DNA from: Patescibacteria group bacterium
GTDB lineage: Bacteria; Patescibacteriota; Minisyncoccia; Phycocordibacterales; UBA918
Length of the DNA stretch: 64,000 bases
Assembly: GCA_019750255.1 (NCBI GenBank)
Contig: JAIEOU010000005.1
Span: 14,078-78,077, forward strand
Direction: 5' to 3'
Shown here: positions 3,313-61,626 of the stretch, piece after piece
Position numbering within the stretch: position 1 is the stretch's first letter
How the letters are laid out: each line of letters starts with the position of its first letter
The notes under the pieces: generated by a model
The model's database searches: none
Told to the model about the DNA's origin: nothing
Seen by the model: only the letters and a program-made list of their open reading frames with translations
Made by a program: the position numbers and the translations under genes

Positions 3313-4530
3313 ATGCTTTTCAAATACATAGCAATCGATAAGGGGAATGTACAAAGGGAAGGCACCGTTGAGGCGGCCAGTATTGATGCCGCTATTTCAG
3401 CTGTACAAAAGCGTGGCTACACAGTAACCTCGATTGATCCAATTGACGAAAAAGGTTCGATAACTGATTTGCTTAATTTTGATTTTGCAATATTTCACAG
3501 CGTGTCAAACAAAGACATTGTTATTTTGTCTCGACAAATTTCCACGTTGTTTCAAGCGCATGTTTCACCACTGCGTATTTTCCGTCTCCTGTCGGCCGAG
3601 GTAGGAAATGCACAGCTGCAAATTGTAATGAATAAGATTGTTGATGACTTGCAAGCGGGGAGTTCAATTTCTCGGGCTTTGGCGGCCCATCCAAAGGTAT
3701 TCTCTTCCTTCTATGTCAACATGGTGCGGGCGGGGGAGGAATCGGGATCGCTCGAGAAATCCTTTGCCTACCTAGCCGACTACCTGGACCGTTCGTATGA
3801 AATTGTTGCAAAAGCCAGAAACGCTCTAGTCTACCCAGCCTTCGTGGTCACTATCTTTTTTGGGGTGATGGGCCTGATGCTCACCCTAGTAATTCCAAAG
3901 ATTGCCAAAATTTTGACTGACTCTGGGCAGGAGCTGCCGATTTATACAAAGATTGTTATTGGTCTTTCCGAGTTCTTAATTGGCTATCTTCCGTTTATAT
4001 TTATCGGTGTGGCTGCGACTGGGGTGGGGATGTGGCGTTTCGCCCGAACTGATGTTGGGCGCCGGACCATAGACGAGCTGAAAATCTCGCTCCCTGTTTT
4101 CGGTAATCTCCAGCGTAAGTTGTTGCTCACCCGCATCTGTGACAACCTCTCGACGATGCTTTCAAGTGGCGTATCGATGGTGCAAGCGCTCGAGGTGACA
4201 GCTGATGTGGTAGATAATACGGTCTTTAAAGAAATTGTTCAGTCGGCTCTCTTTGAAGTGAAGGGAGGACGGTCGTTTGCTGATTCCATCGCTGAGTATC
4301 CAGAAATTCCAACGGTTCTGTCACAAATGGCGCGCGTGGGTGAAGAAACCGGAAGTCTGTCGGAAATCATGACCACACTCGCCAATTTCTACCGACGTGA
4401 AGTGAACCAAGCAGTGGACACCATGATTGGGCTCATTGAACCAGCTATGATTGTGATGTTGGGTCTCGGTGTGGGTGTGCTCTTGGCATCGGTTTTGATG
4501 CCGATTTATAACCTCACCGGCAACTTCTAA
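3313..4530 (+). CDS. pilC: Type IV pilus platform protein PilC/GspF
   Basis: Two T2SSF repeats (AGEESGSL, VGEETGSL), IEPAMIV..., MPIY C-terminus. Confidence 0.93.
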   Translation: MLFKYIAIDKGNVQREGTVEAASIDAAISAVQKRGYTVTSIDPIDEKGSITDLLNFDFAIFHSVSNKDIVILSRQISTLFQAHVSPLRIFRLLSAEVGNAQLQIVMNKIVDDLQAGSSISRALAAHPKVFSSFYVNMVRAGEESGSLEKSFAYLADYLDRSYEIVAKARNALVYPAFVVTIFFGVMGLMLTLVIPKIAKILTDSGQELPIYTKIVIGLSEFLIGYLPFIFIGVAATGVGMWRFARTDVGRRTIDELKISLPVFGNLQRKLLLTRICDNLSTMLSSGVSMVQALEVTADVVDNTVFKEIVQSALFEVKGGRSFADSIAEYPEIPTVLSQMARVGEETGSLSEIMTTLANFYRREVNQAVDTMIGLIEPAMIVMLGLGVGVLLASVLMPIYNLTGNF

Positions 4531-4630
4531 GGAGAAACAGGAAGCGGCGAAGCCGCGACCATGTTTTCCTTATGCAGACGCCTCGTTACTTTCGAGCCTC
4601 AAAGCGAGGAAAGTAACGGCGGCGACCTGC
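4528..4630 (+). repeat. Structured repeat module starting at the pilC stop codon (homologous to valS-downstream array)
   Basis: 4570-4630 matches the reverse complement of 56837-56897 at 56/61 by manual alignment; two hairpins. Confidence 0.85.
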
Positions 4631-4642
4631 GAAAGGAGACTT

Positions 4643-4770
4643 TGGATTGCTTCGCTGCGGCTCGCAAAGACGAATGCTGAATACGACTGCTTCGTCTCTG
4701 CGAGTTTACGAAGCAGTCCAGGGTTCCATACCCTTCTTTCGATTACATCACTAAGGCTCGCAAAGACGAA
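4643..4770. repeat. Three REP-like palindromic units (GGATTGCTTCG...CTCGCAAAGACG type), alternating orientation
   Basis: 4643-4673 (+), 4691-4723 (inverted), 4741-4770 (degenerate +); another copy at ~54959-54992. Confidence 0.75.
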
Positions 4771-4979: not shown

Positions 4980-5477
4980 ATGATCAAAACCATGCGGACC
5001 CGCGGTTTCACCCTCATCGAACTTCTCGTTGTAATCGCTATTATCGGTATCTTGGCCGCAACGGTACTTGCCGCCCTTGGTAACGCGCGAAGTAGCGGAA
5101 ACGACGCTTCGACGCAGTCGCAAGTTAATTCTGCCAAGGCTCAAGCTGAAGTGTATGCTAATGGTAATACAACAGCTCCCGGAAGTTATGTAGGCCTCTG
5201 TACTGCTGCGAACCCCAACAGCTTGGGTACACTCCTAACGGGTATCGCTCGTACTGCGCCCGGTACCGATGCTGCTGTATTGACTGCCACTGTACAGACT
5301 GCTAACACAGACGGTACTGGGGGTTCGATTAATTGCAGGGATGCCGCAACTACTTGGGTCTTGTCTGCGCCTCTTGCTCGCTCTACGGGAGGTTTCTTCT
5401 GTGCGGACAGTACTGGCTTTAGTGGCGTAAGAACCACGCCACTACCAGCAGCCAATACTGCTTGTCCAGCTTCTTAA
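4980..5477 (+). CDS. Type IV major pilin, copy 1
   Basis: RG|FTLIELLVVIAIIGILA prepilin cleavage/methylation motif; 4 Cys in C-terminal domain. Confidence 0.93.
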   Translation: MIKTMRTRGFTLIELLVVIAIIGILAATVLAALGNARSSGNDASTQSQVNSAKAQAEVYANGNTTAPGSYVGLCTAANPNSLGTLLTGIARTAPGTDAAVLTATVQTANTDGTGGSINCRDAATTWVLSAPLARSTGGFFCADSTGFSGVRTTPLPAANTACPAS

Positions 5478-5604: not shown

Positions 5605-6102
5605 ATGCTTAAACAAACTTATCAAAAGGGCTTCACCCTCATCGAACTTCTCGTTGTAATCGCTATTATCGGTATCTTGGCCGCAACGGTACTTGCCGCC
5701 CTTGGTAACGCGCGAAGTAGTGGAAACGACGCTTCGACGCAGTCGCAGATAAACTCTGCCAAGGCTCAAGCTGAAGTCTATGCGACGGGGAATAACAATT
5801 CTTATGATGGGGTTTGTACGATTGCAAGCGCCAATAGTCTGGGTCCATTGCTGACAGGAATTGTAAGGACAGCACCAGGAAACAACACTCCTGTTATTGA
5901 CGGAGCGGTACAGACAGCAAACACCGATGGTACAGGTGGGACTATTAATTGTAATGACGCGCCTACCGCCTGGGCAGTGTCAGCGCCGCTCAATCGATCC
6001 ACTGGCGGATTCTTCTGTGCGGACAGTAGCGGATTTAGTGGAGTTCGTGTGACGCCGTTACCGGCGAGCGGTGCTACGGGTAGAGTGTGTCCTTCATCAT
6101 AA
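5605..6102 (+). CDS. Type IV major pilin, copy 2
   Basis: KG|FTLIELLVVIAIIGILA; paralog of 4980-5477, same length. Confidence 0.93.
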   Translation: MLKQTYQKGFTLIELLVVIAIIGILAATVLAALGNARSSGNDASTQSQINSAKAQAEVYATGNNNSYDGVCTIASANSLGPLLTGIVRTAPGNNTPVIDGAVQTANTDGTGGTINCNDAPTAWAVSAPLNRSTGGFFCADSSGFSGVRVTPLPASGATGRVCPSS

Positions 6103-22987: not shown

Positions 22988-23041
22988 GGCCGGCACTTTT
23001 ATGGTAGTCTTTCGGAGCGCAAATTGCGCACCGAAGCAGAT

Positions 23042-23165
23042 TTGGGATATCGTCTAATGGAAAGCAAAGCTTCCTTGAACGGCGCTCGCACAATGGATGT
23101 AAGTACTCTTCCATCCCCGTGCTCGCTTGTTCAAGTAGGACAGCGAACTGCCTTTCCATTAGACG
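23042..23165. repeat. Hairpin element containing sense and antisense copies of the tRNA-Gln 5' end
   Basis: 23042-23060 identical to 23185-23203; 23051-23064 and 23152-23165 are a 14-bp inverted repeat. Confidence 0.85.
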
Positions 23166-23185
23166 GACGGCAGGGTGAAACGTAT

Positions 23186-23256
23186 TGGGATATCGTCTAA
23201 TGGTAGGACAGAGGCCTTTGAAGCCTTTAATTGGGGTTCGAATCCCTGTATCCCAG
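23186..23256 (+). tRNA. tRNA-Gln(TTG)
   Basis: tgggata/tatccca acceptor; gaggc-ctTTGaa-gcctt. Confidence 0.93.
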
Positions 23257-23295
23257 CTCATAGAAAAACAACCACTCTTGTGGTTGTTTTTCGTT

Positions 23296-23533
23296 TATGA
23301 GCTGGGATACAGGGATTCGAAAAGCGCAGCAATGTGAGGAGCTTTTACTAAAGCGACGAACCAGCGAGCTGGGGTCGAGAGCACTTACTAGAATTGGAGC
23401 GTCAGCGAACAATTATAGTTAGTGACTCGTGACCGAATCCCTGTATCCCAGCTCGAGTAAAACACCCGTCAGGGTGCTTTTACGTAGTGCTGGGATACGT
23501 AAGGTCTGGGAGACCTTGCGTCAGGGATTCGAA
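23296..23533 (+). repeat. tRNA-end-bracketed structured element (Gln copy) plus start of a second cycle
   Basis: Antisense tRNA 3' end 23296-23321 (26/26), core 23322-23433, sense copy 23434-23454, interrupted antisense copy 23489-23533. Confidence 0.88.
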
Positions 23534-23719
23534 ACCCGATTGAGCATAATTTTGCGCGAAGTGAACTATATGTACGATTGCAATAGTCCCTATGGATTTT
23601 TAGAGCCCTTCAGCTCGTTGGATTGTAAAAAATATCGGTCTTAACTGGTGATACACTGATTACTCGAACAGGCACATGTTGATATTCTTTAAATCATACC
23701 GACTCCCACTTTGAAACTC

Positions 23720-25243
23720 ATGAGACAAATATTATTTGGCTTTTTACTGCTCCTCGTTTTACCGCTTCCGTTTTTGGCCGATGCACACAGTAATGAAGAT
23801 TTAGAACCGGTCACAATTATAATGACCGAACGCGGCTATGATGTAAAAACTTTAGAAATTGAAGTCGGGCAAAGGGTCATATTTAAGAATGAAGGGTCTG
23901 AGGGCCTTTGGCCGGCATCAAACATTCATCCTACTCACGAAATATATTCAGAATTTGACCCGAAAAAACCTATTCTGCCTGGTCAGTCGTGGGAGTTCAC
24001 CTTCGATAAGGAAGGAGAGTGGAGATTTCACGATCACCTGCTTCCGACCATTGTCGGCACCATCAGAGTTGTGTCCTCAAATGATGTGAGTGTGGAGAGT
24101 AAAGAAGTTCACGGTGAGCGCTCTGGCGTCTTCAGTAAAGTAAAAACATTTTTTGTAAATTTGATTAACTCACTTTTTGCATCCAATCGGTCGACAAGTG
24201 AAGTCGCTGAAAACACTCTGAATCTGCCAACGGTAACAAGGGACACTAAGGAGATTTTTTCAAACGACGAACTCCTTAAGTCATATGTGCAAAGCTTTGG
24301 ACCTAAAGCGACTGTCGAGTATTTGCATGAGCTTTCAGCTGAGTTTGGCGACTGCCATCAAAGCGCCCACGCTGCTGGTCATTTTGCGTATGAACTTTAT
24401 GGTAGCGAAGCGTTTCAAGCTTGTAGCGCTCAGTGTCACTCAGGTTGCTACCATGGAGCAACCGAAGCCTATTTTGGTGAACATGGTACCAAGGACTTAG
24501 CAAAAAATTTGGGTATTATCTGTGGCTCAGTATCCAATCCATTTTTTAGCCATCAGTGCATTCATGGCGTAGGTCATGGTTTAACCGCCTGGACCAGTTA
24601 TGATGTGCCTGAAGCCCTTAGGGCCTGTGACTTGCTTCCAAGCGGGCATGAGTCTTGCTACACGGGTGTTTTTATGGAAAACGTAGTTGGTGGAATTGCT
24701 AAAGATGAAGCAAAAAACAGTGAGGAAACTGCCCATGTTACCCAATACCTAAGTCAAGACCCGCAGTTTCCCTGCACTGTGGTAGATGAGAAATATAAAG
24801 CTTCATGTTACATATTCCAAACGTCTCGAATGGTCCAGTTGTATGATGGGGATTTTTCTAAGGTAGCTAAAGCCTGTCTTGCTGCTCCCGAGCTGTATCG
24901 AGCACATTGTTTCCAGAGTATGGGGCGTGATGTTGGTGGAGTAAATCGGGGAAATCCGAGCAGAGCGATTGCTGAATGTAAACATGTACCAGATGGAAAC
25001 TTCCGTAGTGATTGTTTGGTGGGGGCGGTACAAGATTCATTCTGGGACTCGTCAGGACACGATGTGGCCATAAATTTTTGCAAACTTTTAGTCGATAGCA
25101 CTGAAAAACATCACTGCTATAAAACAATTATTGAACGAGCGCCGCAGGTAATTGAAGCTAAAACCGACCGCCACATATTCTGCAATAAAGTTGAAACTCC
25201 TTTTCAGCAGGACTGTGCTGCAGTCATTGATCTAAACATTTAA
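23720..25243 (+). CDS. Exported cupredoxin-like domain plus Cys/His-rich repeat domain protein
   Basis: Signal peptide; WPASNIHPTH...FHDHL cupredoxin-like region; CHQSAHAAGH, GCYHG, CIHGVGHG, CYTGVFMEN motifs. Confidence 0.7.
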   Translation: MRQILFGFLLLLVLPLPFLADAHSNEDLEPVTIIMTERGYDVKTLEIEVGQRVIFKNEGSEGLWPASNIHPTHEIYSEFDPKKPILPGQSWEFTFDKEGEWRFHDHLLPTIVGTIRVVSSNDVSVESKEVHGERSGVFSKVKTFFVNLINSLFASNRSTSEVAENTLNLPTVTRDTKEIFSNDELLKSYVQSFGPKATVEYLHELSAEFGDCHQSAHAAGHFAYELYGSEAFQACSAQCHSGCYHGATEAYFGEHGTKDLAKNLGIICGSVSNPFFSHQCIHGVGHGLTAWTSYDVPEALRACDLLPSGHESCYTGVFMENVVGGIAKDEAKNSEETAHVTQYLSQDPQFPCTVVDEKYKASCYIFQTSRMVQLYDGDFSKVAKACLAAPELYRAHCFQSMGRDVGGVNRGNPSRAIAECKHVPDGNFRSDCLVGAVQDSFWDSSGHDVAINFCKLLVDSTEKHHCYKTIIERAPQVIEAKTDRHIFCNKVETPFQQDCAAVIDLNI

Positions 25244-54476: not shown

Positions 54477-54549
54477 GCTTGGGTAGCTCAGTTGGTAGAG
54501 CATTTCCCTGAAGAGGAAGGGGTCGCCGGTTCGAGCCCGGCCCCAAGCA
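54477..54549 (+). tRNA. tRNA-Phe(GAA)
   Basis: gcttggg/cccaagc acceptor; tttcc-ctGAAga-ggaag. Confidence 0.93.
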
Positions 54550-54578
54550 CAAGAAAAGCGCCTTCGGGCGCTTTTTGC

Positions 54579-55119
54579 GTGCTTGGGGCCGGGCGTGAAG
54601 GGGGTCGGGGAAACAGTTGTTTCCCCGTGGAGGAAGGCAGTGAGCGACGTTAGGAGCGAGCGTTGGAAAACCGTGGGTTTCCAAAGTGCCTGGGCCCTAA
54701 GCTATATTACAAACTAATGCACCTTTCGTCCGGGCTCGAACGCCGGAGCGTTGTCACGAGCGTGCTTCCTAGCGCGAGTGATCACGAGGCGCGTCCAGCG
54801 GTCGTAATGACCGTAGCGTGAGAAGTGAATAAATGTCACTTCGCAAGACTCATTGAGGCACTATATGAGCGGTAGCGAAATATAGAACCCAATGAGTGGA
54901 CAGCTTCTGTAAGAAGTTAGAAAAAGCGGGACGAGCCCGGCCCTAATATGTAACCAAGCCCTGGATTGCTTCGTTGCGACTCGCAAAGACGAGGACCTCG
55001 CCGAGTGGAGGTCGAGCGAGTGAGATAGATTGTGAGCGAAGCTAAACAAAGTATGCACAAGAGTGACCGAGCCCGGCCCAACATTCTCGTGGGTTTCCAA
55101 AGTGCCCAGGCCCGAAGCA
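54579..55119 (+). repeat. Nested array of tRNA-Phe-end-bracketed structured elements
   Basis: Antisense 3'-end copies 54579-54594 and 54730-54741; sense copies 54932-54943 and 55068-55079; 19-nt direct repeat 54672-54690 / 55088-55106. Confidence 0.82.
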
Positions 55120-56488: not shown

Positions 56489-56515
56489 GTTCTGGGGACG
56501 TGGCTATGATGTAGA

Positions 56516-56940
56516 GTAGCTCGCCACCGCTACTTTTTTAGTATTGAGACAGAACTCGATTCCTTAGTAAGTCGCTGCCACTGGTTTTTTCGCTCCGAAG
56601 CTTAAAACCAGTGAAGCGATTACATAAAGAAAACATAGTCGGTACTTCGTACCTTCTTGTTTCTCCTTAGTAAGTCGCTGCCACTCGTTATCTCGCTTTG
56701 AATCTCGAAACGAGTGAAGTGATTTCACCACAAGGGTACTTCATTTTTATAGTCGCTAGGCTCCTTAAAAATTGGTCGCATAAGGAAAGTATAGTCGGCC
56801 TGTGGCCTCCTTACTTCTCCTTATTATTTCTGCACAGCAGCTCGCCGCCGCTACTTTCCTCGCTTTGATGCTCGAAAGTAGCGAGGCGCCTGCATAATCA
56901 AAATATAGTCGTAGCTGCGCTACTCCTTATTTCTGCACAG
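56516..56940 (-). repeat. Tandem array of structured modules downstream of valS
   Basis: 14-nt duplication of valS end (56824-56837 / 56927-56940); 22-nt direct repeat 56561-56582 / 56664-56685; four ATAGTCG-hairpin units. Confidence 0.88.
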
Positions 56941-61361: not shown

Positions 61362-61504
61362 GGACTCGGTCACGAATCACTAAGTATATTTGTTCGTCTG
61401 CGACTCCAAATCTACTAAGTGTTCTTGACCACGGCTCACTGGTTCGTCGCCCAAGGGAAGGGGCGACTCACATCGCTGCGCCTTTCGAGTCCTGTGTCGC
61501 GCAC
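61362..61504 (-). repeat. tRNA-end-bracketed structured element (Val copy)
   Basis: Inverted tRNA 3'-end copy 61484-61504 (20/21); core homologous to 23322-23433; short sense T-arm copy 61362-61368. Confidence 0.88.
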
Positions 61505-61553
61505 ATAAAGCAAAGAAGGGTCATGCTGTGCATGACCCGACTTATTGCTTTAG

Positions 61554-61626
61554 TGCGCGATACAGGACTCGAACCTGTGACCTCCACAATGTCAATGTGA
61601 TGCTCTACCAGCTGAGCTAACCGCGC
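61554..61626 (-). tRNA. tRNA-Val(GAC)
   Basis: Reverse complement cloverleaf; tcaca-ttGACat-tgtgg. Confidence 0.95.

Follow-up and report, generated by a model that had tools for sequence, protein, structure and literature searches.

Behind the tRNA-Gln(TTG) gene of the source genome, a 950-kb assembly in 16 contigs, the 3′ end of the tRNA occurs twice more, once inverted and once direct, together with a hairpin and a structured non-coding core. What is this arrangement, where does it begin and end, and by what route do such copies come to lie behind a gene? We analysed it in a 64,000-nt stretch of one of the contigs (the window), and followed its relatives in the source genome, the genomes of the order and metagenomes. 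Very probably, the unit is a mobile element that carries its own gene end and a guide.

Layout of the units in the window

At tRNA-Gln we observed the following. A hairpin occupies 23263-23292, and 23296-23321 is the exact reverse complement (26/26) of 23237-23262. The core, 23322-23433, is 112 nt long, and the 21-nt copy that follows it (23434-23454) is identical to 23239-23259. An earlier note on this DNA had described just this hairpin, 26-nt antisense copy, core of ∼112 nt and 21-nt sense copy, and these coordinates were confirmed. Its boundaries of the element, however, have to be moved. The unit begins inside the tRNA, at C56, and the sense copy lies outside it, being the start of an older, type B unit (Table 1). 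On folding, the z-score was −12 and 0 of 200 shuffles were equally stable. The suspicion that the repeats might be an assembly artefact was removed by contigs of run X5 from a second study (P2, separate from the possible source study), which showed 0 differences over 23219-23402 and 23404-23720. A contig of run X2 also matches 23063-23401; the independent contigs reproduce the repeats in pieces, no single listed piece covering the entire stretch.

Table 1. Positions of the units and their parts in the window
Feature	Position	Strand	Details and basis
Type E unit at the tRNA-Gln 5′ end	23041..23185	+	tRNA 5′-end copy, core, copy of the next tRNA bases, antisense D-arm piece
tRNA-Gln(TTG), intact	23186..23257	+	sequence
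Target triplet T54-T55-C56 of the T-loop	23237..23239	+	complementary to the 3 guide bases beside the core
Replacement 3′ end (C56-C74), probably supplied by unit 1 as its left end	23239..23257	+	sequence; polarity from empty/filled and stacked loci
Turn hairpin h, terminator-like, varies among units	23258..23300	+	inner hairpin 23263-23292; loop census
Antisense guide arm	23301..23321	+	complement of positions 57-74 (23301-23318), then GAA, complement of 54-56 (23319-23321)
Core hairpin H1	23323..23370	+	3-bp stem, G(G/C)A over GA internal loop, variable upper stem; covariation
Core hairpin H2	23373..23433	+	GGTC base, bulged A, T-T mismatch, variable tip; core end GTGAC; covariation
Displaced older tRNA end (the sense copy), also left end of unit 2	23434..23454	+	
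Unit 2, sister family type B, truncated	23453..23575	+	own hairpin, hairpin-split antisense arm, core start ACCCGATTGAG; right boundary approximate
tRNA-Phe (54477-54550) and array behind it	54477..55079	+	antisense arm near 54576-54593; type C unit about 54729-54942
Divergent core at the end of the Phe array	54995-55067	+	displaced end 55068-55079
Displaced Val end, truncated (CGAGTCC)	61362..61368	-	sequence
Val unit	61369..61552	-	hairpin 61505-61552, antisense 61487-61504 (17/18), guide GAA 61484-61486, core 61369-61483
tRNA-Val(GAC)	61553..61626	-	61553-61571 is the replacement end of the Val unit

The unit behind tRNA-Val(GAC) has the same arrangement, as had been claimed, but its antisense arm matches positions 57-74 at 17 of 18 and its sense copy comprises merely 6–7 nt. 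Aligned over 124 columns, with 3 gap positions, the Gln and Val cores are identical at 100, and a 47-nt block of them is alike at 85%. The three compensatory pair changes reported previously are all visible in this alignment, together with a fourth at the H1 base (A-T to G-C). The divergent copy assigned to tRNA-Phe (55063-55079) is present as well, but it closes an array, ∼510 nt behind the tRNA, and is devoid of an antisense arm of its own. Throughout the source genome, iterated nhmmer gave about 30 core-like matches, mostly behind tRNAs; a stricter profile gave 17 cores, 13 of them behind 10 tRNAs.

Sister core families were also observed. In types B and C the arm layout is the same and the T-loop junction almost so, and they occur at ftsZ ends too; besides the copies in Table 1, they lie at C8:24805, C10:33363 and C15:76943 of the source genome. 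A type D insert is found between T55 and C56 of a partial tRNA sense copy (contig C13, near 115114; also L183), and this same insert occurs nested within H1 at L467. The type E core recurs in a copy of the 3′ half of tRNA-Thr(TGT) on contig C13, and both copies end before TAGG. The tRNA-Gln(TTG) itself is 100% identical in genome G046 (L152) and 77–84% identical in the other eight genus matches, with differing flanks; the tRNA gene may thus itself have been transferred. A different hairpin repeat family with co-varying stems is present at 4527-4770, 54959-54993 and 56510-56940 of the window, and 5004-5449 and 5629-6065 form a tandem paralogous ORF pair (165 aa). The source genome further holds a tRNA-Ser with anticodon ACT and a tRNA-Pro call with AGG (C15:76432, C9:26645).

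Register of the arms and fold of the core

The order of parts in a unit is replacement 3′ end, turn hairpin, antisense guide and two-hairpin core. That the arms follow the host tRNA, as the earlier note held, was evident from 89 loci, at which the identity of the sense and antisense arms to the tRNA of the same locus was above that in each of 10,000 permutations (in all the arm, distribution and association counts given here, related genomes are non-independent). The antisense arm follows the 3′ strand of the tRNA, and not the 5′ strand, at 25/25 wobble or mismatch positions, on which ground a minihelix origin of this arm was rejected. Of the differences between gene end and sense copy, 39 were scored (a further 12 were unaligned); the arm agrees with the gene end at 30 of them and with the sense copy at 8. 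This arm is often split by a hairpin after position 64, and 31 of 126 start with the same three bases there. Sense copies are full-length in 55/126 cases. CCA is found at 9/55 gene ends and 5/55 displaced ends; because there is no enrichment, the mature tRNA is not the template, and this origin of the arms was rejected.

At the junction, the target triplet is complementary to the three bases that precede H1. Among 208 units scored for this register, an arm was found in 119 and none in 89; the duplicated end was scorable in 71, and the offset of 3 is kept in 70 of these. The guide also tracks variant T-loops (TCC with GGA, TGC with GCA). The base after the GAC of the core equals the third target base in 148/151 cases, including 4 of the 6 non-C cases. 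As this last base follows the host, the displaced end begins at C56, in agreement with the earlier note, and the guide extends two bases past the duplication, and the view that both joints follow a core-encoded C was dropped. The register is fixed, the antisense arm running two bases beyond the duplicated segment, or three when the shared C is assigned to the core. Of 35 pairs whose cores are ≥85% alike, 28 have arms that differ at ≥5 of 14 positions. Cores that are even 93–96% alike carry unrelated arms, and arms must therefore be rewritten at times.

The fold of the core is conserved, as had been proposed from the two window copies, and the cores show strong covariation. H1 could be parsed at 178 of 232 loci. 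Its four anchored pairs give 712 cells, of which 679 are Watson-Crick, 21 are G-T and 6 are A-C; at two of the pairs all four types of base pair occur. RNAalifold, given an alignment of 34 sequences (the two copies in the window and 32 out of 62 candidates), returned 26 pairs, 15 with two-sided changes; 0/500 shuffles reached the covariation score, and slid control alignments dropped to about 35% paired. The invariance of the H2 base is no evidence in this respect because the base is fixed by the search pattern. A mini-hairpin reading of GCGCAGC in H1 was dropped in favour of an internal loop, as indicated by covariation.

In a loop census, cGNAg tips were found in 34/123 H2 and 21/123 H1, and GNRA tips in 3 H2 and 1 H1. 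The tips of the turn hairpin h are GNRA or cUUCGg in 14/91 and cGNAg in 2. In the 232 H2, CGNAG occurs on the folded strand in 110 and on the opposite strand in 9. GNA triloops have been described as a stable DNA mini-hairpin motif, the RNA counterpart tested there being much weaker (PMC13037366). These loop types point to a core that folds as DNA. The conserved bulges and mismatches of the core would suggest recognition by a protein, or catalysis. In an in silico fold of the putative circle, the guide GAA is predicted to be unpaired with RNA parameters and nearly unpaired with DNA parameters, and the arm stem to be closed.

Distribution, direction of insertion and protein-gene ends

A pattern scan detected at least 120 loci in species genomes and at least 121 rows in metagenomes. 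Among 80 titles from the former, 71 name Patescibacteria lineages and 9 say 'bacterium' only. With a shorter pattern, 46/151 genomes of the order were positive and the control gave 0 matches; viral contigs gave 0 matches with two patterns. The element family is widespread in one lineage. A same-strand tRNA or tmRNA is located within about 600 nt upstream at 168 of 232 distinct loci, covering all 20 amino-acid types, a share that is inflated because the search pattern ended in the T-loop junction. An Rfam match, which the earlier note had named as a possible refutation, was not obtained for the window or the core, with nothing at gathering score beyond tRNAs and RNase P. We found no description of the element in the literature searched, where supplementary tables could hide such a family, and the Minerva preprint contains no CPR terms. 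The family is not known from this literature, and we regard it as new inasmuch as it falls outside each family compared below, judged by that family's membership test.

The direction of insertion was read from orthologous loci. About 11 of 26 tRNA-Val(GAC) loci carry a unit (by eye), with several core types, and others pass directly into the next gene. An empty orthologous locus, of the kind that the earlier note had named as a check, is L184, where tRNA-Val(GAC) has no unit; L163 has a sister-family unit with the same trailer after its sense copy. It follows from these Val loci that the sense copy is the older end and that the unit supplies the current end of the tRNA. Units stack by insertion upstream of older ends, and are present or absent at orthologous sites. 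In the three genomes checked, there are no copies at different loci more than 91% alike, and hence no recent burst was seen. At L159 (G012), the displaced end behind tRNA-Gln(TTG) is a Gln(CTG)-type allele and the trailer begins as in a unit on Gln(CTG) at L155, for which a cross-isoacceptor jump between Gln(CTG) and Gln(TTG) is a possible explanation.

The same core is present at the ends of ftsZ, rpsI, rplL, clpP, fusA and a topoisomerase zinc-ribbon gene (last codons; Pfam). Because of these protein-gene insertions, the term tRNA-targeting is too narrow; of the non-autonomous mobile element restricted to tRNAs that had been suggested, the first part stands but not the restriction. At one ftsZ locus (L389, G007), the incoming and displaced ends have 12 differences in 37 nt and 0 protein changes. 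Three rpsI loci, one of them found by a pattern requiring the peptide, have 2–4 differences in 10 nt, and the antisense arm agrees with the incoming end at 7/8 positions. It had been proposed that the terminal stem is copied from its target; as a general rule this fails, since at ftsZ and rpsI both the incoming end and the antisense arm differ from the displaced end. The displaced peptide differs from the incoming one at clpP and fusA, and the displaced end of the source genome's own ftsZ has decayed. The rpsI junction pattern matched 37 loci, consisting of 1 clear rpsI unit and 36 unmatched to the rpsI end.

The incoming ftsZ ends of L439 and L444 have 1 difference in 37, with gene cores 82% alike; the background at this locus is a median of 11 differences at 80% core likeness (378 pairs). 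The incoming end of L439 has 11–13 differences from its closest kin, and its displaced end has 2 from the current end of a relative, L442. Since the ends differ mostly synonymously and incoming ends are common to distant species, the arms are carried in and not freshly copied. Not every low-distance pair is a transfer, because one such pair (L449, L457) includes an empty locus. One ftsZ unit has a core 93% identical to the Val core of the window; this, together with the like cores with unrelated arms (28/35), shows that arms and cores are also reshuffled.

The guides of ftsZ units were read in 28 of the 30 best matches to G007, 20 with a guide and 8 without (two of these cut off). The first guide found equals the host triplet in 20/20, with three triplets represented (GGC, CGC, TGC), although at two loci its distance is 130 and 195 nt and it may be part of a unit other than the first. 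Of seven guides that come later in ftsZ arrays, 3 match the host triplet and 4 mismatch it (one maybe not an ftsZ unit), a hint that a newly arriving unit alters the upstream base of the host. The triplet matches would fit guide-directed site choice.

We searched for an enzyme that could move the units. The source genome has a single match each for a Y1 transposase, an Xer-like recombinase and a large serine recombinase, three for GIY-YIG, and none for RT or IS110. The core profile had 0 matches at its Y1, Xer and serine loci and at one of the three GIY-YIG loci. The co-occurrence with HUH (Y1) or RT genes that the earlier note had in mind did not appear over the 151 genomes of the order. Y1 genes are present in 31/46 element-positive and 60/105 other genomes (p = 0.28), RT genes in 19/46 and 43/105 (p = 1.0) and serine recombinases in 30/46 and 66/105 (p = 0.86), presence profiles being weak tests for old, enzyme-less units. 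Cores were found at 0/30 Y1 loci (30 of >200 Y1 matches) and at 0/30 serine recombinase loci, and no autonomous copy or recurring enzyme was found among 270 neighbouring ORFs. The element strand has positive GC skew in 15/30 long loci, i.e. no replication-strand bias by this indirect, local proxy; the Gln and Val units of the window sit on opposite GC skews.

Several neighbours deserve description. The sole Y1 gene of the source genome and two small downstream ORFs (C9:10100-11500) are bracketed by a different, GC-rich hairpin repeat; the two ORFs may be a toxin-antitoxin pair. Directly behind a unit at tRNA-Ala (L469, G161:C2) lie a 311-aa reverse transcriptase and an upstream HTH-like ORF. 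This RT, ∼500 nt from the core, was considered as the mover and set aside as separate cargo, being a single case beside an HTH-like gene. Integrase-less gene cassettes are located between a tRNA or tmRNA end and a unit at L207, L215, L218, L247, L265 and L281, where the right border is often GTTCTAAC or GTCGAACC, followed by about 10 nt and then the tRNA tail; the source genome has such cassettes at C15:74258-76432 and C16:2589-4439. A 224-aa ORF between tRNA-Met and an intron-containing tRNA-Asp (L349, 624-1298) is, as we take it, similar to a LAGLIDADG endonuclease.

Route of movement and relation to known systems

How the units move can be proposed with less confidence. We lean towards a non-autonomous element of about 150–250 nt that is moved as folded single-stranded DNA by guide-directed strand transfer. 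The unit would exit as one strand, or as a circle, with its replacement end paired to the guide and the guide bases next to H1 left unpaired. Where the sense strand of a matching gene is unwound, at the T-loop, the acceptor end or the last codons, these free bases would anneal to it. The target would then take the place of the replacement end on the guide, and the 3′ end of the core would be linked to the target by a single-strand transesterase acting in trans, of HUH type or similar. The carried end would complete the interrupted gene, and therefore the host would survive. New specificities would be rare; a unit could acquire one by capturing a different end, through correction of its guide with the hairpin as template, or when units swap cores. 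We offer tentatively, and with some doubt, the wider view that this is natural DNA-guided insertion, where a constant core for a candidate enzyme, a changeable guide and a carried end allow harmless insertion in conserved gene ends and move alleles between species. The chemistry may prove to be a variant of HUH transposition. The missing replication-strand bias and the missing link to Y1, serine recombinase or RT argue against the classic IS200/IS605 route, and one clean cut and join leaves the apparent change of the host base with the newcomer unexplained, which argues against strand transfer, as do the lack of an autonomous copy among the neighbouring ORFs and of a recent burst in the genomes checked.

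The strict sense orientation at highly expressed genes is compatible with an RNA step too. The unit would in that case be co-transcribed with the host gene and copied back by an RT in trans, primed at a target nick in the manner of R2, with a precise right junction and a left junction derived from pairing with upstream gene sequence. The balance between replication strands, an upstream base apparently imported with the newest unit and the RT genes in 62/151 genomes of the order agree with this route; we nevertheless consider it unlikely in view of the DNA-type loops and few G-T pairs, the lack of an RT in the source genome and of any RT association, and the CCA counts, by which the mature tRNA is not the template. 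It is equally improbable that no dedicated enzyme is involved and that single-stranded DNA, acquired by natural DNA uptake, is joined by host recombination or repair while template switching at hairpins perfects the inverted arms. In its favour are tandem duplicates with identical hairpins on contig C14 and two equal-scoring cores 159 nt apart at L346; the upstream base changes with the newest unit and the fruitless enzyme search suit it also. It would hardly yield a right junction that is base-fixed across tRNAs and protein genes, or displaced ends that keep recipient bases from the first codon, and the homology at rpsI is imperfect and goes down to 10 nt. The bulges and mismatches conserved in the core, suggestive of protein recognition or catalysis, speak against it as well.

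The cargo cassettes without integrase between some units (L207, L247, and C15 and C16 of the source genome) would fit a reading in which the unit is an attachment site, folded from a single strand and used by a tyrosine recombinase of the host or a serine integrase in the style of integron attC or IMEX, and the units are minimal cassettes. The Xer-like and large serine recombinases of the source genome, and the tRNA or tmRNA call at 20/30 serine recombinase loci, are in keeping with this possibility. We give it little credence, as no fixed core is common to the targets (TTC, NGC, GTC, CAC, CTG and others) and the serine recombinases show neither association with the element nor a core at their loci. 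We also considered a cis-acting RNA module under selection, in which the antisense arm sequesters the 3′ strand of the tRNA for processing, a role that the earlier note had contemplated, or the unit loops out like an intron. The lowest-energy RNA fold is indeed predicted to pair the tRNA 5′ half with the downstream copy and to loop the unit out of the T-loop, and the antisense arm keeps to the gene end rather than the sense copy in most scored differences. This is very improbable to our judgement. The patchy presence, the stacking and the interchangeable core types at the same tRNA-Val locus disfavour such a regulator, full-length sense copies are found in only 55/126, the same core lies behind protein stop codons, and displaced ends decay, as in the source genome's own ftsZ.

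The units rewrite the last codons of essential genes and the acceptor ends of tRNAs across species, and these rewritten ends affect phylogenies, tRNA annotation and island callers in Patescibacteria. The mapped junction rule and the substrates make the mechanism directly testable with oligonucleotides.

Integrative elements and islands enter the 3′ ends of tRNA, tmRNA or protein genes and restore them, with crossover in the T-loop region. The units resemble them in the carried replacement end, the displaced end downstream, the newest unit next to the gene and the T-loop region, and here too the gene is restored while its 3′ end stands as a direct repeat. They differ in being ∼200 nt, non-coding and without integrase, in the inverted guide copy and the variable targets, and in that one core serves 20 tRNA types and protein genes, with a junction at T55/C56 and no fixed 7-bp overlap. 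Prokaryotic MITEs are likewise short, non-coding and structured, with empty and filled sites; as described, they have fixed terminal inverted repeats and short target duplications (PMC3184786, PMC10969869), whereas the inverted repeat here is target sequence and lies at one end only. R2 and its SIDEs are site-specific, lie in sense orientation in conserved, highly transcribed genes and include non-autonomous units moved in trans, but according to PMC3414825 they are eukaryotic, with one fixed site, a ribozyme and a poly(A) tail, none of which was seen here. Among retroelement features more widely (R2 SIDE, group II intron, retrozyme), we obtained neither an Rfam ribozyme or intron match nor a linked RT.

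REP/BIME sequences with TnpA-REP (RAYT) are, like the units, multi-copy, lineage-restricted, non-coding hairpins at gene ends that form stacked mosaics (PMC6006769, PMC3733652). Their foot tag is given there as GTAG, GTGG or CGTC, and copies flank the RAYT gene; here the bases before H1 vary with the target, each target has arms of its own, the unit inserts within the gene end and repairs it, and the source Y1 gene is flanked by other hairpins. The closest guide geometry is that of IS200/IS605. In IS608, single-strand hairpins have guides 5′ of the hairpin foot that pair at the junction, as is the case here (PMC5934647, PMC6006769); changing the guide retargets insertion, extended pairing does so in engineered IS608, and C is favoured at +1, next to the cut (PMC5934647). 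As far as described, those elements have one subterminal hairpin per end and a fixed left tetranucleotide and prefer the lagging-strand template (PMC5027513), whereas here H1 and H2 are adjacent at the right end with variable triplets, and the skew proxy (15/30) shows no lagging-strand bias. The guide here is naturally long and target-specific, the unit carries a replacement gene end, so that the target end occurs twice, and a TnpA partner with the same ends was not found at the Y1 loci examined (0/30 of >200; p = 0.28). By analogy, the element appears to work like an IS200/IS605 guide joined to a gene-restoring integrative element, yet it fails the defining features of both. If the guide reading is true, these units are a natural counterpart of engineered IS608, in which insertion is directed by long, programmable DNA-DNA pairing; they would add a built-in repair of the target gene, and the enzyme would be a candidate tool for programmable integration.
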